64,000 nucleotides of DNA from an uncultured Candidatus Saccharibacteria bacterium (GCA_964398775.1 CAYNND010000006.1:3890-67889); one strand, 5' to 3'; shown: positions 9,537 through 40,500, numbered from the stretch's first letter. A program made the numbers and translations. Notes: generated by a model from the sequence alone, not told the origin.

Positions 9537-10322
9537 TCACTTCATGCTCTGCACAGCGCGATGTACCTCCTTACTTCTATGTGCTTGCACAAGTTTTACA
9601 AACACAGAACCCGCGATAGCAATTGGTGCAAAGGCATGCACCGCACGGACATCATCTCGTGTGCTGATTCCGAAACCGATACCAATCGGGAGCTGCGTCA
9701 GGGCTCGCACAGTACTCAGGTAGTGTTTGACTCCATCAAGTGTTGCCTGTTTTCCGGTCGTTCCTTGTCGGGAGGTGCAGTATATGAATCCACTTCCAAG
9801 AGGGAGTATTTTTTTGAGGCGAGTTTTCGTAACTCCTGGCGAGATTACGGGGATGATGTGTATGTCATGTGCTCGAGCGGCTGAAACGATGCGAGACCCT
9901 TCCTCAGTATCGAGTGGTATATCAGGGATGATGAGTCCTGCAACGTGACTTGCGGCAGCATCTGCCACAAATGCCTCAATTCCATATCGAAACACTGAAT
10001 TGCCATAACACATGATAACGATAGGTGTTCTCGGGTGTCTGTGCCCAAATACATGTGCCATCTCAAAAGCATCAGCTGGAGCTGGTGCATGCTCGACAGC
10101 TATTTGGCATGCAGCAGCAATTGTTGGTCCGTCAGCCATAGGGTCTGAGAAGGGGATCTGCATTTCAAGGATGTCTGCGCCGCCACGAATCATGTCGTCT
10201 GCAATATGTGCAGAAGCATCTATGTCGGGGAAGCCCACTATCATATGTGTCATCAAGAGCTGCCCTTTTTTCTCTGCGAGGAGTTGCGTGAGGGTATTCA
10301 TATTAGTATCGAGAAAGTTCAT
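9537..10322 (-). CDS. trpA: tryptophan synthase alpha chain
   Basis: GADILEMQIPFSDPMADGPTI and a C-terminal GFGIST motif. 261 aa. Overlaps trpB by 20 nt. Confidence 0.9.
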   Translation of the reverse strand: MNFLDTNMNTLTQLLAEKKGQLLMTHMIVGFPDIDASAHIADDMIRGGADILEMQIPFSDPMADGPTIAAACQIAVEHAPAPADAFEMAHVFGHRHPRTPIVIMCYGNSVFRYGIEAFVADAAASHVAGLIIPDIPLDTEEGSRIVSAARAHDIHIIPVISPGVTKTRLKKILPLGSGFIYCTSRQGTTGKQATLDGVKHYLSTVRALTQLPIGIGFGISTRDDVRAVHAFAPIAIAGSVFVKLVQAHRSKEVHRAVQSMK

Positions 10323-11541
10323 CTGCTAAAAATGCCTTGAATGTGCCATCGCCATGTTCTCTTGCGAGAGTGAACAAATCTTTATCACCTCGACCAGAAA
10401 CATTGACCACAATCGTCTTTGTTTTTGAGAGGGTTGGTGCAAGCTTGAGTGCATACGCAAGCGCATGCGCACTTTCAAGCGCTGGAATAATTCCTTCGTT
10501 TCGCGCAAAAAACTCCACAGCAGCAAGTGCCTCAGTGTCTGTGGCTGTTGTAAGCTCAAGCCGCTTCGCTTCATAGAGCATCGCAAGGTCGGGGCCAAGC
10601 CCTGGATAATCAAGCCCAGCAGCGATACTGTGCGTCGGGGCAATCTGTCCATCTTTTGTTTGTAAGAACAGAGATTTGTATCCTTGGAAGATGCCTGGCT
10701 CTCCTGCAATTTTCCTGCTTGAATGCTCGCCAACTGCATTTCCTCTTCCTCCCGCTTCAACACCAATGAGTCGCACTTTTGTATGAGGAATGAATGCGTC
10801 AAATGCACCGATTGCATTACTACCACCTCCAACGCAAGCGATGACAGCAGCGGGGAGAGTGGCACCAGTGTGTTCTTTGAGTTGTGATTGTATTTCGCGC
10901 CCGATGATTGACTGGAAGTATCTGTTCATTTCAGGATATGGTTTCGGCCCGAGCACAGAACCAATCACATAGTGAGCATCTGCAAGGTGTTCCATCCAAT
11001 ACTTGAGCGCTTCGTTGACCGCATCTTTCAATGTTTTGCTCCCTGATTCAACTGAAATGACACGGGCACCCATGAGTTCCATAAAAAAAACATTTGGGCG
11101 TTGTCTGCGAATATCTTCTGCGCCCATAAACACTACGCACTTCATTCCAAGTTTTGCGGCGACGGTCGCTGTTGCGACGCCGTGCTGACCTGCACCAGTC
11201 TCTGCAATGAGTGTTGTTTTTCCGAGGGTGCGTGCGATGAGTGCTTGTCCAAGGCAGTGTGTAATTTTGTGAGCGCCCGTAATGTTCAGACCTTCATTTT
11301 TTAAATAAATGCGGGCACCTTTGCAATGTTTTGTTGCTTGTGCGGCAAAGGTAAGTGGTGTCGGGCGACCTGAAAAGTGTTTCAGTAGTTGTGCGTACTC
11401 TTTCCGGAATTGGGCTGAGCGCTGCGCTTTCTCAAATGTCTCTACAAGTTCTCTGAGGGGCTCATGCAACATTTCAGGAACATAGGCGCCACCATACTGT
11501 GGGTGTTGATTTTTTTTCCCGCTGACTGAGTGTTTTTTCAT
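10303..11541 (-). CDS. trpB: tryptophan synthase beta chain
   Basis: GRPTPL, the PLP-lysine context NITGAHKITH, ETGAGQHGVATA and GGGSNAIG. 412 aa. Confidence 0.95.
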   Translation of the reverse strand: MKKHSVSGKKNQHPQYGGAYVPEMLHEPLRELVETFEKAQRSAQFRKEYAQLLKHFSGRPTPLTFAAQATKHCKGARIYLKNEGLNITGAHKITHCLGQALIARTLGKTTLIAETGAGQHGVATATVAAKLGMKCVVFMGAEDIRRQRPNVFFMELMGARVISVESGSKTLKDAVNEALKYWMEHLADAHYVIGSVLGPKPYPEMNRYFQSIIGREIQSQLKEHTGATLPAAVIACVGGGSNAIGAFDAFIPHTKVRLIGVEAGGRGNAVGEHSSRKIAGEPGIFQGYKSLFLQTKDGQIAPTHSIAAGLDYPGLGPDLAMLYEAKRLELTTATDTEALAAVEFFARNEGIIPALESAHALAYALKLAPTLSKTKTIVVNVSGRGDKDLFTLAREHGDGTFKAFLADELSRY

Positions 11542-11547
11542 ATCTAT

Positions 11548-12327
11548 TTATACTACTAATGCGGCTTGTAATGAAGCAATATGTTCAGCAGGGTGCGATG
11601 ATTGCAATATTGATGCACCCACGAGTATGCCTCGCGCACCCGCTGCACGTACACGCGACACATCTGCAGCGTTCTGTATTCCAGATTCGCTGATGACTGG
11701 GATTGAGTGCGGGATAGTGGTGATCAGTTGTTCGGTTACCGACAGGTCAATGGTGAGCGTATCAAGGTTTCGATTGTTGATACCAATAATACGCGCGCCG
11801 CAACGGAGGGCTTTCTCCACTTCAAGTTCAGTATGCACTTCTACAAAATATCCAAGATTGCATGCAGTGCACGCTGCGATGCATGCAACAAGTTCTGCCT
11901 CATCAAGTACTGAGGCAATAAGTAAAACAGCATCAGCACTAGTCAACGCCGTTTCGTATATCTGGTAGACATCAACAACAAACTCCTTTCGTAAAATGGT
12001 TTGCGGGGCAAGAGCATGCACTTGCTCAAGCAATTCGAGGCTGCCACCAAAATACTTTGTATCTGTAAGTACTGATATGCAGTTAATCGTTGTTGGTGCA
12101 TACTTTTTCGCGACAGAAAGTGGGTCACTGGTGAGAGTCCCATGAGATGGTGATTTCGGTTTTATCTCACCAATGAGTACTCCTGTACTTTCAAATAGCT
12201 CAAAAAAAGGACGGCGGGGTCTGTACAAGTCGGTACGAGCCTGGAGTGTCTCAAGCGGCAGGCGCGCTTTGAGTGCTGCGACTTCTTCTTTTTTATGTGC
12301 GATGATTTCATCCAAGATGTTTGTCAT
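11548..12327 (-). CDS. trpC: indole-3-glycerol-phosphate synthase
   Basis: GEIKPKSPSHG, INCISVLTD, FVEVHTELE, IGINNRNL. 259 aa. Confidence 0.9.
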   Translation of the reverse strand: MTNILDEIIAHKKEEVAALKARLPLETLQARTDLYRPRRPFFELFESTGVLIGEIKPKSPSHGTLTSDPLSVAKKYAPTTINCISVLTDTKYFGGSLELLEQVHALAPQTILRKEFVVDVYQIYETALTSADAVLLIASVLDEAELVACIAACTACNLGYFVEVHTELEVEKALRCGARIIGINNRNLDTLTIDLSVTEQLITTIPHSIPVISESGIQNAADVSRVRAAGARGILVGASILQSSHPAEHIASLQAALVV

Positions 12328-12971
12328 ACTGTGTGTGCGTGACTGATAAATGTTCTCACTTTCTCCTCATCTTTTTCACCGGTTGCTCTGCAGACCCCTG
12401 AGCGAACGTCGACTGCATACGGGCGCACTTGCGCGATAGCTCCACGCACATTTTCTGGATTTAATCCGCCCGCAAGGATAACTGGAATAGATACCGTTCG
12501 CACGATGTCTGCGCTGACGCTCCAGTCGTGGGTAACCCCAGTCCCGCCGGTGGTGCCTTTCAGTGATGTATCAAGCAGGAGTGCATGTGCTGCAGCTTCA
12601 AAACTCTGTGCTCGTTCCACGCTGCTGCTATCTTGAACGTGGACGACAGCAATAAACTGCACGTAGGGGAATTGCACACGGAGCGTGCTGATATGTGCGG
12701 GAGTAATATGTGAGTGACATTGGACAACTGAAGTACCAGTTACAGATATAAGTGCAGCGATAGACTCAATACTTTCATGTGTGGTCACTATGACGCCCTG
12801 AACAAAGGGGGGCAGAGCAGTGAGTATGTCTCGAGCAGTCTCTGGAGTGACAAAATGCTTCTGTGATTCGGTATGCGGTCCAACAAGAATACCTACAGCG
12901 TCTGCACCGCTCCGTGCTGCAAGGAGTGCTTCATTAACACTTCGGTTACCGCATATTTTTATTCGAGTCAT
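12324..12971 (-). CDS. trpF: phosphoribosylanthranilate isomerase
   Basis: MTRIKICGN...GADAVGIL...LAGGLNPENV. 215 aa. 4-nt overlaps with both neighbours. Confidence 0.85.
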   Translation of the reverse strand: MTRIKICGNRSVNEALLAARSGADAVGILVGPHTESQKHFVTPETARDILTALPPFVQGVIVTTHESIESIAALISVTGTSVVQCHSHITPAHISTLRVQFPYVQFIAVVHVQDSSSVERAQSFEAAAHALLLDTSLKGTTGGTGVTHDWSVSADIVRTVSIPVILAGGLNPENVRGAIAQVRPYAVDVRSGVCRATGEKDEEKVRTFISHAHTV

Positions 12972-13990
12972 AGTGCAGAATATTTTTGTGATGCGCTGAT
13001 AAGTGACTCAAGTGCGTGCAGAGCGCGTCCAGTATCAATACTCTCGTGCGCGTGCGTAATACCTTGCGCGATTGAGTGTGTCACCCCTGCTGCATAGAGT
13101 CCTGCTGCTGCATTGAGTACAACTACGTCTCGCCGCGCACCAGTTTCACCACTGAGGATTGCACGCGTTATAGCTGCGTTTGCCACTGCATCACCACCAG
13201 TGAGGGCTCCTTTCTTCGGTTTTTTAAACCCAAGCTTTTGCGGGTCGATAGTAAGGCGCTTCACACGAGTCCGCTCGACGAGCACCGCATCTGTCGGAGC
13301 ACTCGTGCTCACCTCATCGAGGCCGTCGCGACTGTGAACGATAAGTGCTCGGGCGTATCCAAGTTTTTGAGCAACAGGTGCGAGTCTGTGGAGTCCGTTT
13401 ATGCTTGGGACACCGATGAGCTGTGTTCGTGTTCCTGCTGGGTTTGCAAAGGGGCCAAGGAGGTTAAAGAGTGTTCGTATACCAAGTGTTTTTCTGAGTG
13501 CTCCAACTTGTTTCAGTGCAGGATGAAAGAGTGGAGCAAATAGAAATACAATTCCCACTTCGCGGTACACTGCAGCTGCTAACTCTGGAGTCAGTTGCAC
13601 GTTCACACCTAGCGCTTCAAGTACATCAGCGCTTCCGCATTTGCTACTCGCTGCGCGGTTACCGTGCTTTGCAATGCAAACCCCTGCACCGGCAAGTACA
13701 AATGCTGCAGTTGTTGAAATGTTAAATGTATGTGCGCCGTCGCCACCAGTACCTACGATATCAAATGCGCCTGGAGCGTCGACTCGTTTCATGTGGTCGC
13801 GCAATGCATGAACTGCACCGACAATCTCTTCTGTCGTTTCTCCTTTCATGCGCAGCGCTGTAATGCATGCGCTTGCAAGTGCGCCGTCGACTGTCCCATC
13901 CATCAACGCACTGACAAACGAACGTATCTCTTTTGTAGAACAATCCGTATGTGCTACAAGCTGTGCGAGCAGTTGTTGTGTTGGGTTCAT
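12968..13990 (-). CDS. trpD: anthranilate phosphoribosyltransferase
   Basis: GTGGDGAHTFNISTTAAFVLAGAGVCIAKHGNRAASSKCGSADVLEALGV. 340 aa. Confidence 0.95.
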   Translation of the reverse strand: MNPTQQLLAQLVAHTDCSTKEIRSFVSALMDGTVDGALASACITALRMKGETTEEIVGAVHALRDHMKRVDAPGAFDIVGTGGDGAHTFNISTTAAFVLAGAGVCIAKHGNRAASSKCGSADVLEALGVNVQLTPELAAAVYREVGIVFLFAPLFHPALKQVGALRKTLGIRTLFNLLGPFANPAGTRTQLIGVPSINGLHRLAPVAQKLGYARALIVHSRDGLDEVSTSAPTDAVLVERTRVKRLTIDPQKLGFKKPKKGALTGGDAVANAAITRAILSGETGARRDVVVLNAAAGLYAAGVTHSIAQGITHAHESIDTGRALHALESLISASQKYSAL

Positions 13991-14586
13991 GAAAGTGATT
14001 GTATAAAATTGGTAAGCATCTGTTTGCCGCCTTCAGTTGCAAAAGATTCTGGATGAAACTGTATACCTTCAATTCGTCTTTCCTTGTGGCGAAGTCCCAT
14101 GATATCTCCCTCACTGGTCTCTGCGGTAATACTGAGGCACGCTGGAAGGGTAGAGCGTTCGGCGATAAGTGAATGGTACCGCATGACTTCTATACCTTGC
14201 GGTAGACCCGCAAAAACCCCAGCACTGTCATGGGAGATGGTGCTTGTTTTACCATGCATCGGAAGGGCAGCTCTGACGACATGCCCCCCACAGTAGTGTG
14301 CTATTCCTTGCATGCCGAGACATACGCCGAGAATAGGTACGGGGAAGTCTTCATCTGTCAGTACGTCAGCACACACACCAAAGTATGCACGATCACTCGG
14401 GTCACCTGGCCCGGGGGAGAGCACAACACCGTCGTAGCCGCGCTCTCGAATCTCATCGAGAGTGATGTCTGTATTACGGATGACATCCACACTACCAGTA
14501 CTATTTTTTGCGAGGAAAATCTCTCCAAAGTATTGGTAAAGGTTATACGTAAATGAATCGTAGTTGTCGATGATGAGTAGTTTCAT
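13987..14586 (-). CDS. trpG: anthranilate synthase component II (glutamine amidotransferase)
   Basis: MKLLIIDNYDSFTYNL...ILGVCLGMQ. Class-I GATase triad context. 199 aa. Confidence 0.9.
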   Translation of the reverse strand: MKLLIIDNYDSFTYNLYQYFGEIFLAKNSTGSVDVIRNTDITLDEIRERGYDGVVLSPGPGDPSDRAYFGVCADVLTDEDFPVPILGVCLGMQGIAHYCGGHVVRAALPMHGKTSTISHDSAGVFAGLPQGIEVMRYHSLIAERSTLPACLSITAETSEGDIMGLRHKERRIEGIQFHPESFATEGGKQMLTNFIQSLS

Positions 14587-14591
14587 ACGAT

Positions 14592-15947
14592 TTAGTTAAA
14601 AGTTTCGGTTAGAGTTTTTTTCATTGCAGCAAGTTTACGCACGATTTCTTCGTACTCATGCGCAGGCTCTGAGTCGTACACAATTCCACTACATGTCTGT
14701 GCATACGCGCGCGATTCATTAATAAATACCGAGCGCAGCGCGAGCGCAAACGTGCAGTCGCCGTTGAAACCAAACTGCCCGACGCCACCCCCGTATGGTC
14801 CGCGTGCCTCCTTTTCATTTGCTTCGATAATTTTCAGCGTCTCAACTTTTGGGGTGCCGCATATTGTTCCCATGGGGAAGTTACTCGCGAGTGCCGAAAA
14901 GGCATCTTCTGTAGGCTTGATGATGCCTGAAACTTCACTCGAGAGGTGTTGCACATGCGAAAAGCGTACTACCTTCATAAGGTCTCGCACACGCACCGTG
15001 CCAAACTGTGCGACACGGCCGATATCGTTTCTGTGCAGGTCAACGAGCATCACATGTTCTGCGCGCTCTTTTGGGTCATTCATGAGTGCACGTGCCAGCT
15101 GCTGGTCTTCTGCCTCATCTTTTCCGCGGCGTGTTGTGCCTGCAAGTGGCTTAGTTGTCATTTCTCCATCGCGCAGTGAGAACAATAACTCAGGAGAAGC
15201 ACCAATTATTTTTCGCTTCTGAAAAGAAAGATAATACATGAACGGAGAAGGGTTCACTTCGCGCAGTCGTTCGTAGATGCGTAGTGTGTCACCTGAGATG
15301 GTGTAGTGTGATTTCAAGCCAACTTCGCATTGAAATGTATTTCCAGCACGAATGTGTTCTTTCACTCGACCAACAATCTGTGCATGTTCATCTGCGGTCA
15401 GCTCATCACCATCAAAGGTGACTGCAAGTGGCGCAGGAGTGTATGTGTCAGCGAGTACTTCGTGCACGAGTGACTCACGGTCTCGTTCGTAGCAAAAGTA
15501 GAAGAGTTCATTCGTTGTTTTGTCATAGACGAGTCCATCGTCGTATGCGCCAAAGAGGAAGGTGGGGAAGTCAGGGTGAGTTTTCACAGGGACAGTTGGT
15601 TCAAAGTATTGGGTTGCCTCGTAGCCGAGATATCCCACAAGTCCACCACTGTAGTTTCGTGCAATCGTGTGCTCAGGCATCACTTTCCGGAGCGCGTCGT
15701 ATGCGTTAGTGACTGTATATGCAGTCCCATCAATAGAGAAATCAGTATTATTTCCGACAATGAGATGTTTCGGGTCAAAGCCGATGATTGAATAGCGAGC
15801 AAATCGTCCTTCCTCACCAAGAGACTCAAAAATGAAACTCGTGTCAAAGCGTCGCTCTATCTTTTTGAAAAGTTCAAAGAAATCGATATCGTCTGCAACT
15901 TTTCTGTACTGTGGTTTCTTGCCGAGTATGATGCGTGGTGGGTTCAT
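14592..15947 (-). CDS. trpE: anthranilate synthase component I
   Basis: Chorismate-binding C-terminus GTICGTPKVETLKIIEANEKEARGPYGGGVGQFGFNGDCTFALALR. 451 aa. Confidence 0.9.
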   Translation of the reverse strand: MNPPRIILGKKPQYRKVADDIDFFELFKKIERRFDTSFIFESLGEEGRFARYSIIGFDPKHLIVGNNTDFSIDGTAYTVTNAYDALRKVMPEHTIARNYSGGLVGYLGYEATQYFEPTVPVKTHPDFPTFLFGAYDDGLVYDKTTNELFYFCYERDRESLVHEVLADTYTPAPLAVTFDGDELTADEHAQIVGRVKEHIRAGNTFQCEVGLKSHYTISGDTLRIYERLREVNPSPFMYYLSFQKRKIIGASPELLFSLRDGEMTTKPLAGTTRRGKDEAEDQQLARALMNDPKERAEHVMLVDLHRNDIGRVAQFGTVRVRDLMKVVRFSHVQHLSSEVSGIIKPTEDAFSALASNFPMGTICGTPKVETLKIIEANEKEARGPYGGGVGQFGFNGDCTFALALRSVFINESRAYAQTCSGIVYDSEPAHEYEEIVRKLAAMKKTLTETFN

Positions 15948-20474: not shown

Positions 20475-22052
20475 ATGAAAACAAAGCACCATCGTGTGAA
20501 AAAAATTAGTAGCACGCTCTTGATTCCAGCTGGAATCGCGCTCGCATTAGTCCTGATGGTGCTCTACAAACCTGCAGATAGCACTTTTGTCGAGATTGGA
20601 TACACTGAGCAGTCACCACTCGGAGAGACAGGAGGTGAAATTATTCCTGCATCATGTCCTTCTCACTTGCACGATGCTCCAGTCAACTATGGTGCTACCT
20701 GTTATTCAGGGGCAAATGCATGTGGTCAAACAGCCACTGGAACGATTCAGTGTAATGGGGCATGTAGCGCTGCTACCCCAGGAGTTACAACTCCTACTGG
20801 TGCTACCTACGGTGCGGCATGTACTTCAGCAGCAAATGCATGTGGTCAGACAAACACAGGAACGATTCAATGTGATGGATATTGCAGTGTCGGACAACCA
20901 GCAAACCCTGTGGGGTATGGTAATGCATGCTCAGGTCCCGCGAACAGTTGTGGTAGTACCAACTCAGGAACGTTAACGTGCTCTGGTGGTAGTCCAACAC
21001 TCTACTGTACCGCAACATCAGCTCCAGCTGATCCAGTACTCCCCGCAACATGTGGCTGTGCAAGCCCACCTGTAAACTACGGTACAGCATGTACAAGTGG
21101 CGCAAATATCTGTGGATTTACGAATACGGGTACTATTCAGTGCAATAGCACCTGCAGCGCTACAACGCCATCTGACTCACTCTGCACAAGCACCTGTGGA
21201 AATGGTGTCTGTGATGCACATGAAACTGTCGGCAGCTGCCCAGCAGACTGTCCAGGTTCAGGAACACCACTCACAGGATGGGGATGGAGTGATAACATTG
21301 GCTGGATATCAGTGAACTGTTCTGACCTTGGGACTTGTGCGACGCGTAACTATGCGCTTCGAAAAAATACTTCAAACAAAATTGTCGGATACGCATGGAG
21401 TGAGAACATCGGGTGGATTAGTGCAAACGCGTCAGAGCTTGCAGGGTGCCCAAGTGGTTCGTGTGATGTCAGTGTCTCATCGCTTGGACGTGTGTCAGGA
21501 TGGATGAAGGCATTAAACGCAGCGGGTGGCTGGGACGGATGGATTTCACTCAATGGTACAAACTATCAAACTATGCTCGAGTCAGACAACATACTTTCAA
21601 ACTGGGCATGGGGAAGTGATGTAACGGGTTGGATTCTCTGGTCAGCACAACTTTCATGTGCGCAGACAGCAGGTGATTTCTGCTCGGGAGACTTGTGGCA
21701 GCATCGTCATCCAAACTGTACTGTGACAACGGTACTCGACTGTGCTCCAAGTACATGTTCAACAAGTACAAACCAGTGTGTCGTTATGCCACCACCATCT
21801 GCAATCACGGGACTTCGTGCGACGCCACAACTCGTCTCGCCAGGAGGTACATCGGTTATAAGTTGGAACATTAAGAACGCGACCTCATGTACAGTGAGCG
21901 GTAACGGCAACTCGTGGACTGGTGTGACCGGTACTCAGACAACCAACCCTATTAACACAGTCTCAACATATACACTCAGTTGTACTGGACTCGGAGGTAA
22001 CCTTACACAGACAGCAATCATCAAGTTTGCTCCGAAGTGGCAAGAGAAGTAA
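20475..22052 (+). CDS. secreted Cys-rich repeat protein with W-rich NIGWIS repeats and a C-terminal Ig-like domain
   Basis: Signal anchor. Four ~40-aa repeats (VN)YG(A/T)ACTSGANxCGQTNTGTIQC(N/D)GxCS. Four W(S)xNIGWIS-type repeats. C-terminus ...ISWNIKNATSCTVSGNGNSW...STYTLSCTGLGG is a beta-sandwich-like pattern. Confidence 0.6.
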   Translation: MKTKHHRVKKISSTLLIPAGIALALVLMVLYKPADSTFVEIGYTEQSPLGETGGEIIPASCPSHLHDAPVNYGATCYSGANACGQTATGTIQCNGACSAATPGVTTPTGATYGAACTSAANACGQTNTGTIQCDGYCSVGQPANPVGYGNACSGPANSCGSTNSGTLTCSGGSPTLYCTATSAPADPVLPATCGCASPPVNYGTACTSGANICGFTNTGTIQCNSTCSATTPSDSLCTSTCGNGVCDAHETVGSCPADCPGSGTPLTGWGWSDNIGWISVNCSDLGTCATRNYALRKNTSNKIVGYAWSENIGWISANASELAGCPSGSCDVSVSSLGRVSGWMKALNAAGGWDGWISLNGTNYQTMLESDNILSNWAWGSDVTGWILWSAQLSCAQTAGDFCSGDLWQHRHPNCTVTTVLDCAPSTCSTSTNQCVVMPPPSAITGLRATPQLVSPGGTSVISWNIKNATSCTVSGNGNSWTGVTGTQTTNPINTVSTYTLSCTGLGGNLTQTAIIKFAPKWQEK

Positions 22053-22082: not shown

Positions 22083-22853
22083 ATGAAAAAATCTTTCTAC
22101 GTACTATTTTTCCTACTTCCATTTTCAGCACTCGCCTGGACGGGACCATCTGCAGCACCACCAGGGAACAATATCTCTGCACCAGTAAATACAAGTAGTG
22201 CAGATCAGTTCAAGCCTGCTGTAATGGGTGCAGATATTCTAAATATCACTGGGGCAAATCAGTACTTTAATTTTGGCAATACAACCGGTTCTGCAGGTTT
22301 TGGCTTTCGAAACAATGGCGGTATTGTCGAATACAAGCAAAATGCAGGACAAAACACTGCCGCAGGGTGGACCGAGTTTGGGCAGGGACGAGGGAGTCTG
22401 ATGAAGATACGACTCGCACAGTGTGGTGGCGGTTGCGCTAGTTATCATGCACTCAATACATGGATAAATGTCTCTGGATACGGATACACATGGTCTACCG
22501 CGCTCAACACAGACTCAAGTACATTTACGCATAACAATACAGGAACAATTACTGTCTCAAAGGCTGGTGTATATCGTGTACGAGTTGGCACTATGTTTGT
22601 CCCAACTACTGATGCTGCCTATGTTTACGGATGCCCGATTATAAATGGCTCTGCAAACTGTGGGCCGCTTGGCTCTGCTGAGGGGTTGCGCCACTCATAT
22701 CATCCAGCGGGCTGGTGGGGTCAGAATATTACGTCGTTTATTTTTGAACTTACTGCTGGTACGACCGTCGGGTATGGTTACTACACACCATACACACTTT
22801 CATACTGGGCGAACGATTCCTACACGTTTCTTGAAGTAACTCGAGTTAATTAA
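22083..22853 (+). CDS. secreted fibre/adhesin-like protein, paralog family member A1 (conserved N-module plus C-terminal domain type A)
   Basis: Signal peptide, then AWTGPSAAPPGNNISAPVNTSSADQFKP...NFGNTTGSAGFGFRNNGG. 256 aa. About 65% identical to the next gene. Confidence 0.7.
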   Translation: MKKSFYVLFFLLPFSALAWTGPSAAPPGNNISAPVNTSSADQFKPAVMGADILNITGANQYFNFGNTTGSAGFGFRNNGGIVEYKQNAGQNTAAGWTEFGQGRGSLMKIRLAQCGGGCASYHALNTWINVSGYGYTWSTALNTDSSTFTHNNTGTITVSKAGVYRVRVGTMFVPTTDAAYVYGCPIINGSANCGPLGSAEGLRHSYHPAGWWGQNITSFIFELTAGTTVGYGYYTPYTLSYWANDSYTFLEVTRVN

Positions 22854-22920
22854 TAATCATACTTGTATCATGCACACAAAACTTTATATAAAAAAATATA
22901 CGAAACAGGCACAGGGAATC

Positions 22921-23688
22921 ATGTTTATCCTGCTCGTTTCTTTTTTGGGCGCAGGTTTGGTAAGTGCATGGACTGGTCCAACAGCAGTACCTCCGAACAA
23001 CAACGTTGCTGCGCCAGTAAACGTAGGAGGGGCGAACCAGTCAAAACCAGGACTCATCGGCGCAAATATTTTCAATGTCTATGGTTCAGGACAGTACATA
23101 AACTTCGGCACTACCACAGGCTCATCAGGTTTTGGCTTCCGCAACAATGGTGGCATCATAGAATATAAACAAAGTGCAGGACAAAATACTGCAGCAGGAT
23201 GGACTGAAGTGGGGAAGGGCCGTGGTAGTTATGTACGTATCGCACTCAATTACTGTGGTGGCGGTTGTGGAAGCTACCATGCGCTCAACACTTGGGTGCG
23301 CGTGTCGAATTATGGATATACATGGACAACGTATACCAATACTGACACTGCAACATTCACACCAAACGGCACTGGCACCGTCACAATAAATAAAGCAGGC
23401 GTGTATCGTATTCGCCTCCAGACAATGATGATTCCAACCGCAAGCACTGCATGGACTGCATACGGATGTCCAATGATAAACGGAGTAGAAAACTGTGGAC
23501 CACTCGGAGCGGGTGAAGGATTAAAGCACGCATATTACCCAGCAGGGTGGTGGGGACAAAACATAACTGAATTCACTTTTGAACTTTCAGCTGGAAACAC
23601 AGTAGGATATGCATACTATATCCCTGTTGCGATGAGTTACTGGGCACACGATACGTATACATTCCTCGACATACTTCGTCTGAACTAA
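22921..23688 (+). CDS. secreted fibre/adhesin-like protein, paralog A2
   Basis: Start moved to the internal Met (MFILLVSFLGAGLVSAWTGPTAVPPNNNV...). Collinear with A1 over its full length, including the GCP(I/M)ING..NCGPLG...PAGWWGQNIT C-domain. Confidence 0.65.
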   Translation: MFILLVSFLGAGLVSAWTGPTAVPPNNNVAAPVNVGGANQSKPGLIGANIFNVYGSGQYINFGTTTGSSGFGFRNNGGIIEYKQSAGQNTAAGWTEVGKGRGSYVRIALNYCGGGCGSYHALNTWVRVSNYGYTWTTYTNTDTATFTPNGTGTVTINKAGVYRIRLQTMMIPTASTAWTAYGCPMINGVENCGPLGAGEGLKHAYYPAGWWGQNITEFTFELSAGNTVGYAYYIPVAMSYWAHDTYTFLDILRLN

Positions 23689-23693
23689 ATCGT

Positions 23694-24302
23694 ATGAATC
23701 GACTTATTCTCATAATTGTGAGTGGTATCGTTGCTGGTGGGGTTGTTTGGTATATTTTCTCTCACGGGATATCTACACCACAAAAATCTCAAACCACTTC
23801 GGCTGATACTATGACCATGGAAGCGGAAGTGAAGCGAGTACTTATGTTCATGCACCCACATATAACCGAAGAAGTTGCCGATGAGTACTTGGATGAACTT
23901 AAAACTTTAAACAAGCAATATGGGTATACTTCAGGTGGTGAGCCAAAAGGGGATATTGAGACGATGCGTGCGTATGCAGGAGCAGTCGAGGTAATCCAAA
24001 AAAAGTACAACATGATGCCGCAGGCAGATACCCAGGCAGCTCCAGCGTCAGGGTACCCGCAGCCACATCTTGCACCACAACAGACCGATACAATGTACAT
24101 GCCTCCGTCACAGATAGGTAGTCAGAGCACCACTACGCAGAGCCCTGCTCTGCAAACCGCAGGCTCGCAGAAACCACTCGGTCCAACTGCAAATCCAAAC
24201 AGTGGTGCGGCAAAGGGTGGTCCGGCGTCAACTCCACCACTAATCCAGCAAGACAATCTACCTCCAGCACCTCCTGTGCCTCCTCAAATGAGTAGTGAAT
24301 AA
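23694..24302 (+). CDS. membrane-anchored Pro/Gln-rich protein
   Basis: N-terminal TM LILIIVSGIVAGGVVWYIF, a helical segment, then a P/Q/T/A-rich tail ending PPAPPVPPQMSSE. 202 aa. Confidence 0.55.
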   Translation: MNRLILIIVSGIVAGGVVWYIFSHGISTPQKSQTTSADTMTMEAEVKRVLMFMHPHITEEVADEYLDELKTLNKQYGYTSGGEPKGDIETMRAYAGAVEVIQKKYNMMPQADTQAAPASGYPQPHLAPQQTDTMYMPPSQIGSQSTTTQSPALQTAGSQKPLGPTANPNSGAAKGGPASTPPLIQQDNLPPAPPVPPQMSSE

Positions 24303-24373
24303 AAAAACTGCTTCTATCTTGAAAGGTGTGCACAGAAAACATCTATGATGTTTTGACATGATACGATACATGC

Positions 24374-25636
24374 ATGTCTAAGCGTACTTTCTTATTGGTA
24401 GTACTGTCTTGCGCGATCCCTGTTGCACTCTTTGCCTGGACAGGACCATCAGCTGCACCACCAGGAAACAATGTCTCAGCTCCAGTGAACATCGGTTCAG
24501 CCGATCAGTTCAAACCAGGTATCATGGGGGCAAATATCATCAATATTTACGGCTCAAGTCAGTATCTTAGTTTTGGGAACACCACGGGAGCGAGCGGATT
24601 TGGTATCAGAAATAATGCAGGCTATTTAGAGTTCAAAAATAGTGGTGGTGCATGGAACCGCTTCGGCCCACCATTTACTGCAGGCTTAAGTGTGAGTGGT
24701 ACTCTCGGTACGCTCTATGGTGGCTCATATCGTATCAATGCAAACGGTGACAACGCAACAGGTGGAGGAATACTCATCGCAGACGATGGAGGCTTCTTTG
24801 ACTATAATGACGGGTGGGTTACATTTAACGGTTCAACAGGCATCAAGATTGCAGGAAATAATGGTGCGGCAAGTCAGGGCAATCAGCTACAGGTGAATGG
24901 AAGAATCGATGCAAATTCCTATGGAGGTAACGGGGGAATCATCTCATCAGGAAATTATGGTGGAACAGGAACCGCTGCATATTTTCCCTCAGGCATCTGG
25001 GCAAATGGTGCAAGTTCATGGCTCTATGGGACCATCTATACAAATGGACAGGTATACGATACTGCGGTTGGTACAGTGCGCGATGCGGGGGGTGGCTGGA
25101 TTCGTACCTATGGTGCAACTGGGTGGTACTCACAAACGTATGGAGGTGGCTGGCATATGTCCGACACGACATGGCTCAGAGCATACGGGAACAAAAATGT
25201 CTATACACCAGGCACAATCAGAGGTGATGCATCGCTCGACTCAAACAATCTCTGCGACCCTGCACACTCATATTGCTCAACGATATATGGTTTGTGGTAT
25301 GTGCATACGTACTACTATTCTGACAAACGGTTGAAAAAAGATATTAAAGATATGTCAGATGATTATGGTCTTGGAGCAATCATGAAGCTACGCCCTGTGC
25401 AATTTACATGGAAAGACAAAACTTCTTCAGAAAAACTTGGTCCACAAATTGGTCTCATCGCACAAGAAGTTGAACAAGTGATTCCTGAGGCTGTGGATAC
25501 TATGCCAAGTAAGGAAATTACTAACGAAGATGGCACGAAAGAAACAATTGAAAATCCAAAATCAGTCACGCATCAGAACCTTGTTGTACCGCTGATTAAG
25601 TATGCACAAGACTTAAAAGCACTCAACGATGTGTAA
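24374..25636 (+). CDS. secreted fibre protein with the conserved N-module and a C-terminal S74-type intramolecular chaperone (tail-fibre/endosialidase auto-processing) domain
   Basis: N-terminus FAWTGPSAAPPGNNVSAPVNIG...FGNTTGASGFGIRNNAG. Gly/Asn-rich middle. C-terminus YYSDKRLKKDIKD...LRPVQFTWKD...GLIAQEVEQVIPEAV matches the SDxRLKxNI / GxIAQEV..V.PE.V signature of the phage tail-spike chaperone domain. Confidence 0.75.
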   Translation: MSKRTFLLVVLSCAIPVALFAWTGPSAAPPGNNVSAPVNIGSADQFKPGIMGANIINIYGSSQYLSFGNTTGASGFGIRNNAGYLEFKNSGGAWNRFGPPFTAGLSVSGTLGTLYGGSYRINANGDNATGGGILIADDGGFFDYNDGWVTFNGSTGIKIAGNNGAASQGNQLQVNGRIDANSYGGNGGIISSGNYGGTGTAAYFPSGIWANGASSWLYGTIYTNGQVYDTAVGTVRDAGGGWIRTYGATGWYSQTYGGGWHMSDTTWLRAYGNKNVYTPGTIRGDASLDSNNLCDPAHSYCSTIYGLWYVHTYYYSDKRLKKDIKDMSDDYGLGAIMKLRPVQFTWKDKTSSEKLGPQIGLIAQEVEQVIPEAVDTMPSKEITNEDGTKETIENPKSVTHQNLVVPLIKYAQDLKALNDV

Positions 25637-25754
25637 CAGAAAAAATAGATGCCCCCAAGAAACAGGTCAGAGAGTTGCAGTCACGGTAGACATATACACA
25701 TATAGAAGCGTAGGAGTGACAGCCCCTGCGGGGAAAGTGCTACGATGGTAGGGT

Positions 25755-26477
25755 ATGCACCGAATCATCACTATTATTTGCGCTGTACTTTTTCCAGCAG
25801 CACTCTTTGCATGGACAGGTCCGACAGCTGCACCACCTGGAAACAACATCGCTGCGCCAGTCAACGTCGGCGGTACTGACCAGTTCAAGCCTGCAATTGT
25901 CGGCGCGAACATTGTCAACATTTACGGTTCAAACCAGTATTTGAACTTTGGTAACACAACTGGTTCAACAGGATACGGTATCCGCAACAACGGAGGGAAG
26001 CTCGAGGCAAAGAACTCAGGTGGCGCATGGATTAAGCTTATAGATAAGCCATGGTTTGTCGCAAGTGGCGATGGATACGGCTGGCAGGGACAATCAGCAG
26101 GTACGTGGCTCTACCCAACAACACTCACAACCTTACGAGGCAATGCAACCGCAAGTTACAACCCTGCAACGGCGCTCTTCACAGCACCTGAAGCAGGTCT
26201 CTATTTCTGTTTCTTCCAGGGGTATAAGAGTTATACAGCTGCAGGGTATCACCATACCATTTCAACATGTAATGGCACGGTCTGTAATGGTTTTGGTAGC
26301 TGGGACTATACACTCGCATCACAGGGGTATACCTCATATGACCAATCAACATCACAAATCTCTGGAATCTATAACCTCGCACTCGGGGAAACAATTGGCT
26401 TTCGTATGTACTCTGAACAAGCAAACAGCTACTCATACTACCCACCATACTCACGCACGGGATGCGCAAAATTGTAA
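25755..26477 (+). CDS. secreted fibre/adhesin-like protein, paralog B1 (conserved N-module plus C1q/TNF-like C-domain)
   Basis: FAWTGPTAAPPGNNIAAPVNVG...NFGNTTGSTGYGIRNNGG. C-domain FTAPEAGLYFCFF...YYPPYSRTGCAKL. 240 aa. Confidence 0.7.
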   Translation: MHRIITIICAVLFPAALFAWTGPTAAPPGNNIAAPVNVGGTDQFKPAIVGANIVNIYGSNQYLNFGNTTGSTGYGIRNNGGKLEAKNSGGAWIKLIDKPWFVASGDGYGWQGQSAGTWLYPTTLTTLRGNATASYNPATALFTAPEAGLYFCFFQGYKSYTAAGYHHTISTCNGTVCNGFGSWDYTLASQGYTSYDQSTSQISGIYNLALGETIGFRMYSEQANSYSYYPPYSRTGCAKL

Positions 26478-26917
26478 CTATGAGTAAAACACTATTCATC
26501 ACAATAGTCCTTATTGCAACGCTTGCAGGCGCGTGGTGGTTTTTAAGTACTGACTCAGGCTCATCGAGTATCATAGGAGTACCGGTTCACAAAGAGGAAA
26601 AAGCTGAACCACCAAACTTACCGAAGCCACCAAGTTTTGTTGAGCGAGTACTGAAGGACAATCCACATATTTCAAGAGAGACTGCAGAGCAATATGAAGC
26701 TGAGCGCATACAAACAAATGTCGCGCATCAAGAGTATCGTGTGCGCGTCTTAAAAGAAAAAAAAGTGAGCGACCCTGAGGAGATGATTGCAATTGAACAG
26801 GGTTTGGCACTTGAGCTGCAGGCACAATTTGAACAGCTTGAAGCAAAATACAATATCCATATGCAGCAGGGGAAGCCTGGTTTTATTGGGGCACCGATTC
26901 CGCCCCCACTCCCATAG
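26462..26917 (+). CDS. membrane-anchored Pro-rich small protein
   Basis: TM LFITIVLIATLAGAWWFL, a helical acidic middle, and a C-terminus GKPGFIGAPIPPPLP. The start may be the internal Met at about 26480. Confidence 0.5.
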   Translation: MRKIVTMSKTLFITIVLIATLAGAWWFLSTDSGSSSIIGVPVHKEEKAEPPNLPKPPSFVERVLKDNPHISRETAEQYEAERIQTNVAHQEYRVRVLKEKKVSDPEEMIAIEQGLALELQAQFEQLEAKYNIHMQQGKPGFIGAPIPPPLP

Positions 26918-26928
26918 TAGATGTATAT

Positions 26929-27702
26929 ATGAACAACAACAGCTATAGCACACTGATACGTACCATTTGCTCAGCAGTAGTCGCAGCGTTTTTGATTGCA
27001 ACCTGTGGGGTGCAGACGCTTGCTGCATGGACTGCTCCTACGGGAACACCGGGCAATAATAATGCAGCACCACCTGTAAATACCGGAACAGGGACTCAGG
27101 CAAAACCAGGCGTGCTTGGAGCAAACATTCTGAACATTTATGGTTCAAACTTGTATCTCAACTTCGGTAACCCAGACGGTGCAAGTGGTTTCGGTATTCG
27201 CAGTAACGCAGGTGTGCTCGAAGGTAAAGATTCTGGGGGAGCGTGGGGCAAGCTTATAGATAAGCCATGGTTTATTGCAAACGGCACTTCAGCAGTGTGG
27301 CAGTCTCAGGGTGCTGCGACTTGGCTCTATCCAACTGCGCTTGATAATAAAAAAGGTAATGCCGCAGCGAGTTTTAACTCAGCAACAGGGTACTTCACTG
27401 CTCCAGAGGCTGGAGTTTACCTCTGTTTTTTCAGTGGGTATAAGAGTTACTCCACTCCTGATGTTCACCACACCATATCTACATGTTCAGGCGGCCCGAG
27501 CTCAGTATGCAACAACTTCGGAAACTATGACTATACGCTTGCTTCACAAGGATATTCGGGCTATGACCAGTCAACATCACAGCTTATCGGACTCTACAAT
27601 CTCATTGCGGGTGAAAGCATCACATTCCGTATGTACTCAAGTGCGGGAAACAGCTATGCGTACTACCCACCGCAGAGTCGTATGGGCTGCGCTAAGCTGT
27701 AA
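26929..27702 (+). CDS. secreted fibre/adhesin-like protein, paralog B2
   Basis: AAWTAPTGTPGNNNAAPPVNTG... Collinear with B1 through FTAPEAGVYLCFF...YYPPQSRMGCAKL. 257 aa. Confidence 0.7.
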   Translation: MNNNSYSTLIRTICSAVVAAFLIATCGVQTLAAWTAPTGTPGNNNAAPPVNTGTGTQAKPGVLGANILNIYGSNLYLNFGNPDGASGFGIRSNAGVLEGKDSGGAWGKLIDKPWFIANGTSAVWQSQGAATWLYPTALDNKKGNAAASFNSATGYFTAPEAGVYLCFFSGYKSYSTPDVHHTISTCSGGPSSVCNNFGNYDYTLASQGYSGYDQSTSQLIGLYNLIAGESITFRMYSSAGNSYAYYPPQSRMGCAKL

Positions 27703-37507: not shown

Positions 37508-40500
37508 ATGAAAAAAGCGCTCGTATTAGTTATTTCACTGCTCACTATTACCTCATCAGCAGATGCGCTGCGTGTACGCCCGCAGACAGATGATATTCCT
37601 GACACAGGGAATGCATTGTACTGCCCGCAACTCTCTCAAACATTGAAACGAGGAATGCGTGACGCCTCCACCTACCCAGCAGGGCAGGTTTCAGAACTTC
37701 AAAACTTTCTTGCAGACTATTTTGAACTAAACGAGCAAGACGTAATCTCAGGCTTCTTTGGAAGAAACACACAGCGATACGTCATGAATTTTCAGCAAAA
37801 GTACGGACTTCCGGCGTACGGAATCGCTGGAACACTCACGCGGATGAAAATCGCTGAGATATGTACAAGTCAAACAGTACAACCTCCTGTATGCAATAAC
37901 TACCCCAAGCCTACCTGTGGTCCGAATCAAAAATTGCTTGAAGAATGGAATGATTATCGTGGATGTCCAACGGTTGGTCGCTGTGTAGATGTAGTAAATC
38001 TCGGTCAACCAAACGTGAGTATTTCAACACCCCGAACATCGTACATTACTGGCGAACCAGTCCTTGTCACAACAAAAGCGACACGCACTCTCGGGAATGA
38101 TTACGGTGCTGCAACTCCTGCAGAAGGATACAAAGTACTTGTCACTGTAACGTATCCAGAAGGTGCATTCATTACAAACTTCAACCCAACATATAACGCA
38201 AGTACAGGGTACTGGGAAGGCAGTTATGTTCCAAGCTATAACGGTGGTGCACACGTGATTCGAACTGAGTTGTACTGTACAAACAAATCATTACCGTGCG
38301 GTAGCTATATTGGTGTAACGACTGACCAAGTCATTACTTCTGCAAAGACGACAATTTCTGTCACGCAGGCAAGCTCAGTTCCGACATGTACAATAAGTAC
38401 TGATAAATCATCCTACCAGCTCAATGACACAATAACGTTTTCATGGACTTCTACAGGTGCTTCGTACGCGCAATTCCTCTCCGATACTTCTGGGAAAGAT
38501 GCTTTACAAGTACCTGGCGACAAGCTGCCAGCACAAGGTTCACAGCAAATACGCGCAACTGTCTATGGTAATCCATACGTGACATTAAAAGTTGTCGGAC
38601 CAGAAGGTCAGAGTGCGCTTTGCCAAAAAACAGTCTCTGTTACATATACCAACTCTGGACCACTGACAGTACAGGCATCACTTGCAGATCCAAAAGGTCT
38701 TGGACGTGAATCATTTCCATTTGGTGAACAACTTGTTATAAAATGGAATGTATCAGACCCGAGCGATGTTGAGACTGCAGGATGGGGGATATACGGAAAA
38801 TCAGAAACAAGCATTGAGCTTCACCCCGTAGATAATCCAACAGCTGCGAGTACCCGTGTTATACGTGTAGCTGAGACGGGCGTATTCCCACACACATTCA
38901 CCTGGAACGTCACACAAGAAGGACTCTTTGGTGACCGAGTCGCACCGGGGCGCTACTATATTTATGTAAATGTACCTTCAAAGAAACAGAGAGGGTATGT
39001 AGTAGGTGTGGCTGGTCCAATAGGAATAGGAGGTACGACAGCTTCAAATGGTATTACTGTCACCGCACCAAATGGTGGTGAGCAGTGGCAGCTCGGTAGT
39101 ACAAACTCAATCACCTGGTCACCGTATAGTTACAATCCCGACGTCAATCCCTCAAGGGATGTGAAGGCATACTTAGAGCAGAAAGACGCGTACGGTAATT
39201 TTGTCACCGTCGGGCGCATCACAGATTCGGGCAAGGCGTCAATTCATTGGAACGGGTACCTTGAAGATGACGTCGCACAGGGGTATGTAAATCACAGGAT
39301 GGCGAGACCAGGCAGTGGATACTATATCCGCGTTGTAAATAAAGTGACTGGAGCCTCTGACAGAAGTGACAATCCGTTCAGTATCATGCCGCAAGGGAGC
39401 ATAAAAGTGTCTGTAGAGATGCTGAGCTACCCTCCAGGCTCGCGAGTAGTATATGACCCGCAGTTCCATGAAGATGCACGCAATGTTGTAGAAATTACAG
39501 ACCAGAAATTGCTGAACTCATTTGGAAATTACACTGTTTCTTGGAGATCAACTGTAGCGGTGGGTACATGTTCTCTGATTTACCCTGGAAGAACTATGGC
39601 AGCAACTGGAAATACGCTGGATAAAATTGATAATCTTCCAACAAGCGGCACTCAGGCTATCAGTCTCTTTCATGACGGAAGACAGCCATTCTTCAGTGTG
39701 AGTGTTCATTGTGACCATGCGGCAACTGGTTCAGTTCAAGGCTCAAGTATAGGATATGTCTATATTAAGCCAATGTTTACTGCGCTCTCAATCACTGAGC
39801 CAAACGGTGGTGTTGTCAACGCTGACCAAGAGAGTACTATCAAGTGGACTTCTGCGGGGATTGCGCAGAATTCAATCGCGCTCTATAAAAATGATCAATG
39901 GTATAAGTGGATACTGCGAGATTACCCAGGTGGAAACAGTGGTACTTCATGGACCCCAAGAAACTACATTACTGATGCAGACATTGCATCAGGGTCAATC
40001 TGGAAGATATACATCACGGGGCAACGTTCAGATGGCACAGGATACCTTGATGATAAGAGCGATACACCGTTCTCATTTTCAAGTAGCACGATTCCAGATT
40101 CTATATCTCTGACGCAACCTGCTGCCAGCACGTTCTACACGCTCGGTCAGCCGATACCAATCGCGTGGAATATACCGGTCCCAAATGCACGTCAGAAGAC
40201 GCAGGTACTAGTGGAGCTGAAAGGAGTCAATACAACAGGAGGTAATGGTGGTGGTATATGGCAAAGCGCTGAAATACAAACAACCCCTGGTCAAACAAAT
40301 GGCTCATACGCGTGGCAGACTGGTGGTTATGGAGGGCTCAATGCTACAGGAACATACGCAGTAACTGTGTACTGGGTTGACTGTGAACCGCAAGGTTGTA
40401 CGTATAACTATGACCAACAAGGAGGTCTTGGTAGGAGACGTTATGCTCAGTCAAATCCTGTATACATCACTATCAATCCTGCCGTGAGCCAAGGGAATGC

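Follow-up and report, generated by a model that had tools for sequence, protein, structure and literature searches.

A tandem array of candidate surface-fibre genes with a shared N-terminal module and exchangeable C-terminal heads in Patescibacteria

Organization of the locus

The window analyzed here, a stretch of 64,000 nucleotides from an ultrasmall, uncultivated member of the CPR (Patescibacteria), carries five paralogous fibre genes, all of them on the plus strand and at the positions given in the original prediction. That prediction had the unit begin at 22083; we place its upstream limit at 20475, which takes in a gene on the same strand (20475–22052) for a 525-aa candidate partner or anchor protein. 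Fibre paralogue A1 (22083–22853, 256 aa) consists of a signal peptide, the shared N-terminal module (N-module) and a type A TNF/C1q-like head, and is 66% identical to A2 (22870–23688), which also has a type A head. The start of A2 may be 22870 and not 22921: the resulting 272-aa form is used by gene callers and by the orthologue P0180, and gives a charged n-region. We nevertheless leave the start between the two, because an AGGGA sequence stands directly before 22921, from which a 255-aa protein would be made. Next on the plus strand are a gene for a small bitopic membrane protein (23694–24302, 202 aa) and the S74 paralogue (24374–25636, 420 aa), in which the N-module is joined to a Gly/Asn-rich shaft and a Peptidase_S74 intramolecular chaperone. 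Paralogue B1 (25755–26477, 240 aa) has a signal peptide, the N-module and a type B C1q-like head with a GCAKL end. It is followed, again on the plus strand, by a second small bitopic membrane protein (26462–26917, 151 aa) and by B2 (26929–27702, 257 aa), which has a type B C1q-like head.

A promoter and terminator scan gave a signal no higher than that of shuffled controls. Between positions 19000 and 29000 a search for near-identical repeats, direct or inverted, gave none, the only inverted pair being 23 nt long and 74% complementary; shufflon-type and DGR-type diversification were therefore rejected.

The shared N-module

All five proteins have the same N-terminal module, as predicted, with 31 invariant columns in 83 and the consensus AWT(G/A)P...PVN...Q.KP..GA.I.N..G..Y..FG..G..G.G.R.N.G..E.K...G..W after the signal peptide. 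The consensus first proposed applies to the array, with B2, whose N-module is the most divergent of the five, departing most from it. When all six frames of the 64-kb window were searched with an HMM of the module, exactly these five ORFs matched (E about 1e-39 to 1e-45; 8.5e-39 for B2) and no sixth copy was detected. The genes had been described as old duplicates under purifying selection, and this agrees with the values obtained over a 68-codon ungapped core: pS was 0.72–0.92 (saturated), dN 0.17–0.35 and nucleotide identity 57–70%, with dN/dS far below 1.

Sec signal peptides were predicted for all five fibre genes, with cleavage of A1 predicted at ALA↓WTGP. Among 169 family members, the residue at −1 to the invariant Trp was A in 156, S in 8 and G in 4, and that at −3 was A, V, L, I, S or T. 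This A-x-A↓W pattern fits signal peptidase I, and the hydrophobic stretch lies upstream of the conserved motif. The module does not correspond to a known annotated domain: it was in no domain library, scans of Pfam, NCBIfam and PHROG giving no match, and a search of PDB sequences returned nothing at E up to 10. In AF2 monomer models the N-module had pLDDT below 50, so that its fold could not be assigned.

C-terminal heads

Beyond the module the proteins had been divided into three C-terminal architectures. The 2 + 2 + 1 split and the motifs were borne out, including GCPxING...PAGWWGQNIT in type A and FTAPEAGxY and GCAKL in type B. By fold, however, there are only two classes, since types A and B are both TNF/C1q jelly-rolls. 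In the monomer models, which were built from shallow alignments (11–13 sequences; mean pLDDT 58) and are usable for the heads only, both types form a ten-strand jelly-roll superimposable on C1q/TNF domains. The predicted tips were not enzymes, and among the best structural matches of both are BclA and the fibre tips of phage tails and of Bdellovibrio. From this fold, trimerization of the fibres would be expected. At the sequence level, no head reached the Pfam gathering score for C1q/TNF membership: Pfam C1q (PF00386) matched B2 only, below threshold (16.1 bits against a cut-off of 23.7), and did not match the type A heads. B2 also had a profile match to cerebellin-1 in the PDB (E 3e-4 over 36 residues). 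When type A and type B heads alone were compared by hhalign, the match was not significant (E 0.084), and their common origin is thus supported at the fold level only. Within orthologous groups tips and N-modules diverged at similar rates; diversifying selection on the tips was therefore rejected, and nothing points to an arms race.

The S74 chaperone was confirmed by a match to Pfam Peptidase_S74 (PF13884; 66.6 bits against a cut-off of 22, E 2.4e-18, residues 316–374). Its S-D-x-x-x-K catalytic motif, SDKRLK at residue 316, is invariant in four orthologues, and self-cleavage at Ser316 is predicted. This is the only one of the five paralogues with a Gly-rich shaft (~200 aa). It matched PHROG tail-fibre families at up to 7e-19 and Pfam Shufflon_N at 7e-10, the latter over profile positions 166–278 only, which correspond to the Gly-rich shaft and not to the pilin N-terminus. 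The S74 gene is missing from two other strains and is dispensable in some strains; here its 3' end is 16–18 codons shorter than in orthologues.

A candidate partner and two small membrane proteins

The protein encoded at 20475–22052 has a hydrophobic segment at its N-terminal end, then four repeats rich in Cys (YG..C.S.AN.CGQTNTGTIQC.G.CS) and five rich in Trp, of the G(W/Y)AWS(D/E)NIGWIS type; after a Cys-rich linker comes a C-terminal domain that, judged by its sequence, is possibly Ig-like. It ends in APKWQEK, and the family alignment has an invariant C-terminal P-x-[FW]-x-E-x. No match was found in Pfam, NCBIfam or PHROG, nor among PDB sequences at E up to 10, and it was the only match when the 64-kb window was searched for the partner. 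We examined whether the N-module co-occurs with a specific partner, as the original prediction had suggested checking. Of 54 loci seeded with the module, 31 had a homologue of residues 255–525 no further than 3 kb from an N-module gene, with the two almost always on one strand; reciprocally, when loci were seeded with the partner, an N-module gene was present in 28 of the 39 metagenome loci that were 6 kb or longer. The association is frequent, not universal. Adjacency is co-location, and binding to the N-module is a candidate role only. Some partner homologues have apparently cleavable signal peptides and not membrane anchors.

The membrane-anchored Pro-rich genes reported to be interleaved with the fibre genes are those at 23694–24302 and 26462–26917, each with a single hydrophobic helix at the N-terminal end and a C-terminus rich in Pro; the two proteins have only a short motif in common (BLASTP E 0.007). 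The former starts 5 nt after the type A pair, has an orthologue at the equivalent position in another locus (L005) and had no family match in Pfam, NCBIfam and PHROG scans; it is a candidate assembly or anchoring accessory. The latter had no family match beyond a sub-threshold TolA. Its 16-nt overlap with B1 suggests that the two are translationally coupled, and its orthologues adjoin type B genes in two other loci (L006 and L008).

Occurrence of the family

An exhaustive HMMER scan identified 6951 N-module representatives at 50% identity. A word-indexed profile search had returned six fragments only and was discarded as a census of the family. Among the best 150 representatives the module was N-terminal in 143, the exceptions being six giant multi-copy proteins and one protein of 1,867 aa. 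The first ~45 mature residues (WTGPT..PP..N..P.N..Q.K) are conserved over thousands of proteins with unrelated C-termini. Tabulation of the domains fused to the module, which had been proposed as a check, showed 119 members elsewhere with S74 (29 of them), Collar, Collagen (2), Gp34_trimer, GP38, C1q or Gly_rich_2. Tandem arrays occur in other CPR lineages (e.g., eight genes and two partners on a Kaiserbacteria contig), and the array with its partner recurs across distant CPR lineages near ribosomal-protein operons. Four N-module matches came from MAGs labelled as non-CPR; in three of these loci (L009, L013 and L023) the proteins are CPR-like and the partner is adjacent, and in the fourth (L053) no partner homologue was detected.

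The predicted housekeeping context was also found here, with no phage structural gene among the part of the window ORFs scanned against Pfam and PHROGs. With no such gene among the ORFs scanned and no confirmed match of the N-module in the 2.9 M viral contigs of IMG/VR, a prophage origin was rejected. Together, the jelly-roll tips, the modularity of the 119 members and the lack of phage genes among the scanned ORFs support the idea of a conserved N-module with exchangeable fibre tips in a cellular setting.

Relation to known fibre systems

Literature searches on CPR with tail fibre, S74, C1q or adhesin did not find a description of this family. The closest architecture we discuss is that of the mosaic adhesive trimer (MAT) fibres of Bdellovibrio bacteriovorus (Caulton et al. 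2024, PMC10769870), in which a signal peptide precedes an N-domain that is invariant and is believed to attach to an element of the surface, and the tips are of the S74 or TNF kind; one of these fibres, Bd2439, binds GlcNAc. The MAT paper and its supplements do not mention CPR. The fibres described here likewise have a signal peptide, an N-terminal domain conserved in all paralogues and an S74 or TNF-like tip, a likeness of architecture only. MAT proteins are ~1000 aa long with long beta-helix/beta-prism shafts and a beta-rich N-domain of ~130 aa, whereas the proteins of this locus are 240–420 aa with a module of ~80 aa and almost no shaft. An adjacent Trp-repeat partner of the kind seen here has not been reported for MAT genes. 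Bdellovibrio is Gram-negative, whereas the array analyzed here belongs to CPR, for which the usual description is of cells without an outer membrane.

A second comparison is with the nap of the Bacillus exosporium, in which BclA (and BclB/BetA, F-BclA) is attached to BxpB/ExsFA, residues 20–38 of BclA binding trimeric BxpB (PMC10470788). BclA has a collagen-like GXY region, whereas the five window genes have no Collagen Pfam match; it assembles in the mother cell, whereas the CPR fibres are predicted to be exported via a Sec signal peptide. The partner of BclA is a TNF-like trimer, and the CPR candidate carries Trp repeats and a C-terminal domain that may be Ig-like. The BclA targeting motif (..GPT.PP..) is one that we take to resemble WTGPT..PP, although this may be coincidence. 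Phage tail fibres and receptor-binding proteins also have S74 or C1q-like tips. They are, however, virion components, whereas the CPR fibres have Sec signal peptides, with no virion genes among the scanned window ORFs, and their genes, unlike those of phages, are chromosomal, near ribosomal-protein operons and conserved across a phylum-level radiation.

Proposed function and alternative explanations

On balance, we think it likely that these genes equip a cell of the Patescibacteria (Minisyncoccia) with several short surface fibres. The proteins would be exported by Sec and, judging from the −3/−1 pattern, cut by signal peptidase I just before the invariant Trp, leaving a mature N-terminus of W-T-G-P-T-x-x-P-P-x-x-N...P-V-N. 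Three chains would then form a trimer, nucleated by the TNF/C1q-like head in types A and B or by the S74 chaperone, which, from the known behaviour of these folds, would subsequently remove itself at Ser316. The conserved N-module would keep the fibre on the cell via a common envelope element, for which the Trp-repeat protein is the best candidate in view of its conserved adjacency and the BclA–BxpB analogy. The variable heads may bind surface ligands, probably glycans, on other cells, and several paralogues would widen the ligand range. The weakest step concerns the small membrane proteins encoded after the A pair and after B1, which would be accessories that help to assemble or anchor the fibres. 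We infer both the surface location and a role in host attachment, and consider the five fibre proteins good candidates for how CPR episymbionts grip other cells.

The same proteins might instead be soluble secreted lectins or C1q/TNF-like effectors, unanchored, that agglutinate, opsonise or signal, the N-module being a short trimerization stalk. We regard this as unlikely. Conservation of the ~45 mature residues on so many unrelated C-termini, nearly always at the N-terminus, is more easily reconciled with a common role in docking or sorting than with a plain stalk, and the conserved adjacent partner would be left unexplained. It is quite unlikely, in our estimate, that the fibres are accessory adhesins of type IV pili, with the N-module docked on the pilus tip or a pilus-associated complex and not on the cell body. 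Type IV pili are reported to be the sole appendages that have been linked to the binding of hosts by CPR to date (PMC12206443). A PilB-like T2SSE ATPase gene adjoins fibre or partner genes in 9–12 of 134 related loci, and its density of ~11 per Mb of surveyed flank is perhaps 2–5 times that expected, the expectation being an estimate of 2–5 such ATPases per genome of ~1 Mb. The S74 paralogue, moreover, matches Shufflon_N, to which PilV, the thin-pilus adhesin of R64, belongs. However, that match is limited to the shaft, without the pilin N-terminus; neither sfx-like inverted repeats nor, among the ORFs scanned, a recombinase was found; no type IV pilus genes were present among the window ORFs scanned; and the class III prepilin signal (G↓F/M-x-x-x-E, then a hydrophobic helix) is absent, the hydrophobic stretch preceding the conserved motif.

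Domesticated or decaying phage tail-fibre genes without an organised cellular function, such as prophage remnants or defunct tailocin cargo, could account for the phage homologues of the S74 domain, the Gly-rich shaft and the C1q heads, and for an S74 gene that is deleted in some strains and truncated at its 3' end here. This origin appears very improbable given the Sec signal peptides on all five genes, which virion proteins lack, the low dN/dS, the lack of other phage genes among the scanned window ORFs and of the N-module in viral contigs, and the recurrence of array and partner across distant CPR lineages in ribosomal-operon neighbourhoods.

Returning to surface fibres, a more general proposal, which we offer as speculative and rather doubtful, is that the cleavage-exposed W-T-G-P-T...P-P...N...P-x-N...Q-x-K is a Patescibacteria-wide sorting or docking signal that mounts thousands of fibre, lectin and giant surface proteins on a single conserved receptor, namely the Trp-repeat protein with P-x-[FW]-x-E-x-COOH at its C-terminus. 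If so, it would be a previously unrecognised surface-display system, similar in role to LPXTG/sortase or BclA/BxpB, and might be what CPR episymbionts chiefly use to recognise their hosts.

Implications

A very large family without a match in Pfam, NCBIfam or PHROG thus has the architecture of receptor-binding fibres and a conserved partner gene, and two new domain families, the N-module and the Trp-repeat partner, are to be defined. Cellular fibres with swapped phage-like tips would extend a principle from a predator, with its MAT fibres, to a whole symbiont radiation. To our knowledge, all cultivated Patescibacteria are obligate episymbionts, and little is understood of the way in which they identify a host and keep hold of it. 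The fibre locus supplies concrete candidates, both for host-range determinants and for surface-display tags in genetically tractable CPR strains.

A tandem array of five putative fibre genes

We identified five ORFs, all on the + strand, in the region 22083–27702, encoding proteins of 256, 272 (or 255), 420, 240 and 257 aa (A1, 22083–22853; A2, 22870–23688; the S74 paralogue, 24374–25636; B1, 25755–26477; B2, 26929–27702). All window proteins are designated 'hypothetical protein' in source annotations, and one relative of these proteins bears the name 'Minisyncoccia bacterium'. Starting after the hydrophobic leader, the five sequences could be aligned without gaps over ~68 residues, and in the alignment of their common N-terminal part (N-module) 31 of 83 columns were invariant. 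A six-frame search of the 64-kb window with an N-module HMM detected exactly these five ORFs (E 1e-39 to 1e-45) and no sixth match, confirming the original observation of a tandem five-gene array with one N-terminal module.

Nucleotide identity within the N-module was only 57–70% among the five genes, the proportion of synonymous differences was 0.72–0.92 (saturated), and dN was 0.17–0.35. A repeat search of the array region found the N-module copies (60–71%) as the only direct repeats; no inverted repeat of note was present. Since synonymous sites are saturated, dN is low and the direct repeats reach only 60–71%, the genes are old duplicates under purifying selection, and the earlier suggestion to this effect was borne out. 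The S74 fibre gene is a strain-level presence/absence polymorphism: contigs of other samples that encode an identical B1 protein lacked window positions 24303–25545, and in two metagenome contigs (L002 1750–1790; L003 580–620) the gene was exchanged for ~41 nt, with a 3' remnant kept. The window S74 copy stops 16–18 codons before its orthologues P0184–P0186. Inside orthologous groups, heads (the C-terminal tips of types A and B) and N-modules showed similar divergence rates.

C-terminal tips

The 420-aa paralogue contained a Peptidase_S74 domain (66.6 bits, cut-off 22) with an intact catalytic SDxxxK motif at residue 316; further matches were to many PHROG tail-fibre families and, in the shaft part of the profile, to Shufflon_N. 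Foldseek searches of the heads against viral models returned C1q-domain phage proteins and tail fibres. The relationship between type A and type B heads was undetectable in sequence (hhalign E 0.084); nevertheless, moderate-confidence models place both in the jelly-roll fold. Thus, of the three C-terminal architectures proposed originally, the 2+2+1 grouping was retained, but the predicted fold classes are two: jelly-roll heads (four, in two families) and a shaft with S74 (one). Some family members were only ~200 aa and consisted of a signal peptide, the WTGPT peptide, one GNVGIGT turn and the S74 chaperone (L023 8–664, L010 7887–8513); after predicted self-cleavage their mature chain would be ~70 residues.

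The N-module defines a protein family

No match to the N-module was found in Pfam, NCBIfam, PHROGs or PDB. When 1.84 billion cluster representatives were scanned exhaustively with HMMER, 6951 proteins were detected at E ≤1e-3, including 759 at E ≤1e-10. In 143 of the best 150 representatives, the module occupied residues ~1–140 of 100–830-aa proteins; of the other seven, six were giant multi-copy proteins and one was a protein of 1,867 aa. Many relatives aligned with only the first ~45 mature residues of the module, and its second half recurs elsewhere, which defines the specific N-terminal element as W-T-G-P-T-x-x-P-P-x-x-N-V-x-A-P-I-N-V-G-x-x-x-Q-x-K. The second half (YLNFG..GYGIRDNAGTLEFKNSGGxW) was repeated 3–13 times within giant proteins of 1,867–6,031 aa (P0041–P0047, P0122), and looks like a first shaft unit or generic shaft repeat.

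Among 169 family members, the residue preceding the invariant Trp was Ala (156), Ser (8), Gly (4) or Thr (1), and position -3 was A, V, L, I, S or T. These -3/-1 residues follow the signal peptidase I pattern; therefore, the Trp is the predicted first residue of the mature protein. S74 was present in 29 of 119 family representatives, and further domains included Gly_rich_2, Shufflon_N, phage Collar, Collagen, Gp34_trimer, GP38, Hint and C1q; all but Hint are fibre-type parts.

A conserved candidate partner gene and small membrane proteins

Directly upstream of the array, 30 nt before the first fibre gene, is a gene (20475–22052, +), the sole member of its family in the window, which encodes a 525-aa protein with a hydrophobic N-terminus, Cys-rich repeats and five Trp-rich repeats of the G(Y/W)AWS(D/E)NIGWIS type. 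Pfam and PDB searches with this candidate partner gave no match; its C-terminal domain was read from sequence as Ig-like. Of the 54 module-seeded loci, 31 had a homologue of its C-terminal half no more than 3 kb from an N-module gene, usually at <500 bp and with the strand almost always shared. The search was also run the other way, from the partner: a metagenome scan confirmed 529 relatives, of which 80 were kept, and an N-module gene was located ≤3 kb away in 43 of these 80 loci (28 of 39 when only loci ≥6 kb were counted), in every case in the same orientation. A P-x-[FW]-x-E-x motif was nearly invariant at the extreme C-terminus of the family (alignment A7; APKWQEK in the window, 22028–22052) and resembles a sorting or docking signal. 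Other loci had arrays of three or four N-module genes, and one Kaiserbacteria contig contained eight such genes and two partners, located between tuf/rpsJ and rplC.

Two genes for small membrane proteins (23694–24302 and 26462–26917; 202 and 151 aa) are interleaved with the fibre genes. In each protein a single hydrophobic helix at the N-terminus is combined with a Pro-rich end, and the two have only a short motif in common. When ORFs flanking related loci were clustered without bias, two further groups of small bitopic membrane proteins emerged whose genes abut fibre genes. One, in 15 loci, is ~190 aa, single-pass, and adjoins N-module genes (e.g., L016 1052–1621, L084 2257–2853, L014 7108–7611); the other, in 11 loci, is ~115 aa, single-pass, with EKLKIL-type repeats (e.g., L022 7564–7920, L014 3796–4113). 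Neither had a Pfam match or was detectably related to the two window proteins.

Genomic context and taxonomic range

The matches from Pfam and PHROG scans of the larger window ORFs were all to housekeeping genes (the full trp operon, several tRNA synthetases, thymidylate synthase, recA and ftsK); phage structural, type IV pilus (T4P) and PilB-like ATPase genes were not found. ORFs directly downstream of the array were read as secE-nusG-rplK by sequence and position. Neighbour clustering placed fusA/tuf near fibre or partner genes in 13 loci. In many CPR lineages, fibre/partner arrays were inserted between fusA/tuf-rpsJ and rplC (e.g., L014 1617–3370, 13886–15745). Their repeated occurrence near ribosomal operons suggests that expression is strong and constitutive. 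In 9–12 loci, approximately a tenth of related loci (L012, L026, L038, L046, L047, L052, L103, L109, L116), fibre or partner genes were directly adjoined by the gene for a PilB-like T2SSE/MshEN ATPase (~11 per Mb of flank), which may link the fibres to T4P.

The tryptophan operon (9537–15947, - strand) contained trpE, G, D, F, C, B and A by Pfam. Close relatives of this genome are labelled Minisyncoccia/CPR, and CPR genomes usually lack amino-acid biosynthesis, so the complete operon is unusual here. Three other large ORFs may encode further envelope proteins: a 1027-aa ORF with PG_binding_1 as its only domain (37508–40591), and two with no Pfam or PHROG match (1335–3881, 848 aa; 45928–47886, 652 aa).

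With each GTDB species represented by one genome and labels taken as given, a scan detected 54 N-module loci, nearly all labelled Patescibacteria/CPR, including Kaiser-, Yonath-, Taylor-, Moran- and Wildermuthbacteria, Paceibacterota and MAGs called 'Saccharibacteria'. Four carried non-CPR MAG labels: Hyphomicrobium (L009), Alphaproteobacteria (L013, on a 964-kb contig), Bdellovibrionales (L023) and Gammaproteobacteria (L053). The first three were CPR-like in appearance with an adjoining partner gene, and no partner homologue was detected in L053; either mislabelling or gene transfer could account for these cases. When 2.9 M viral contigs were screened with an N-module pattern, no match was confirmed.

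Possible function and relation to known systems

The fibre proteins combine a Sec-type leader bearing a signal peptidase I motif, a common N-module and jelly-roll or S74 C-termini, and are encoded in a cellular context beside a conserved neighbour gene. The original view of a conserved N-module with exchangeable fibre tips in a cellular setting is supported, with fold classes corrected to two. From these features and moderate-confidence models, we infer that signal peptidase would cleave before the Trp and that trimerisation would be driven by the TNF/C1q head, or by an S74 chaperone that then removes itself. The N-module would retain the fibre on the cell, and the best candidate for its receptor is the Trp-repeat protein encoded next to the array; the heads would bind ligands, probably glycans. 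An accessory role is possible for the two small membrane proteins, whose genes come after the type A pair and after B1; in phages, too, the gene for a fibre chaperone lies immediately downstream of the fibre gene.

The short length of the fibre proteins and the lack of a known anchor motif would also fit soluble secreted lectins, but this reading is unlikely, as it leaves both the strictly N-terminal peptide conserved family-wide and the partner gene unexplained. Pilus-associated adhesins, which the modest pilB enrichment near other loci favours, appear slightly less probable still, given that the prepilin signal is missing and the scanned window ORFs include no T4P gene. An origin as phage remnants is very improbable: the proteins carry signal peptides, the genes are under purifying selection, their synteny is phylum-wide, and the viral contigs yielded no confirmed N-module.

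The overall logic of fibres borne by a cell and not by a virion, with a conserved N-terminal adaptor and swapped trimeric tips, is already known, and two characterised systems operate in this manner. Bdellovibrio mosaic adhesive trimer fibres resemble these proteins in architecture but have a long beta-helical shaft that is missing here; their listed relatives are in Micavibrio, Uabimicrobium and Omnitrophica, and CPR are not among them (PMC10769870). In Bacillus BclA, N-terminal residues 20–38 bind trimeric BxpB with extreme stability (PMC10470788); its collagen region is also missing here. The fibre proteins belong neither to phage virion proteins nor to pilins. In the literature searched, no description of the N-module or partner was found, and both are missing from the domain libraries searched. 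The analysis brings to light a conserved two-gene module, consisting of the N-module gene and its candidate partner, and the locus offers candidates whose role in host recognition can be tested within a major uncultivated radiation.
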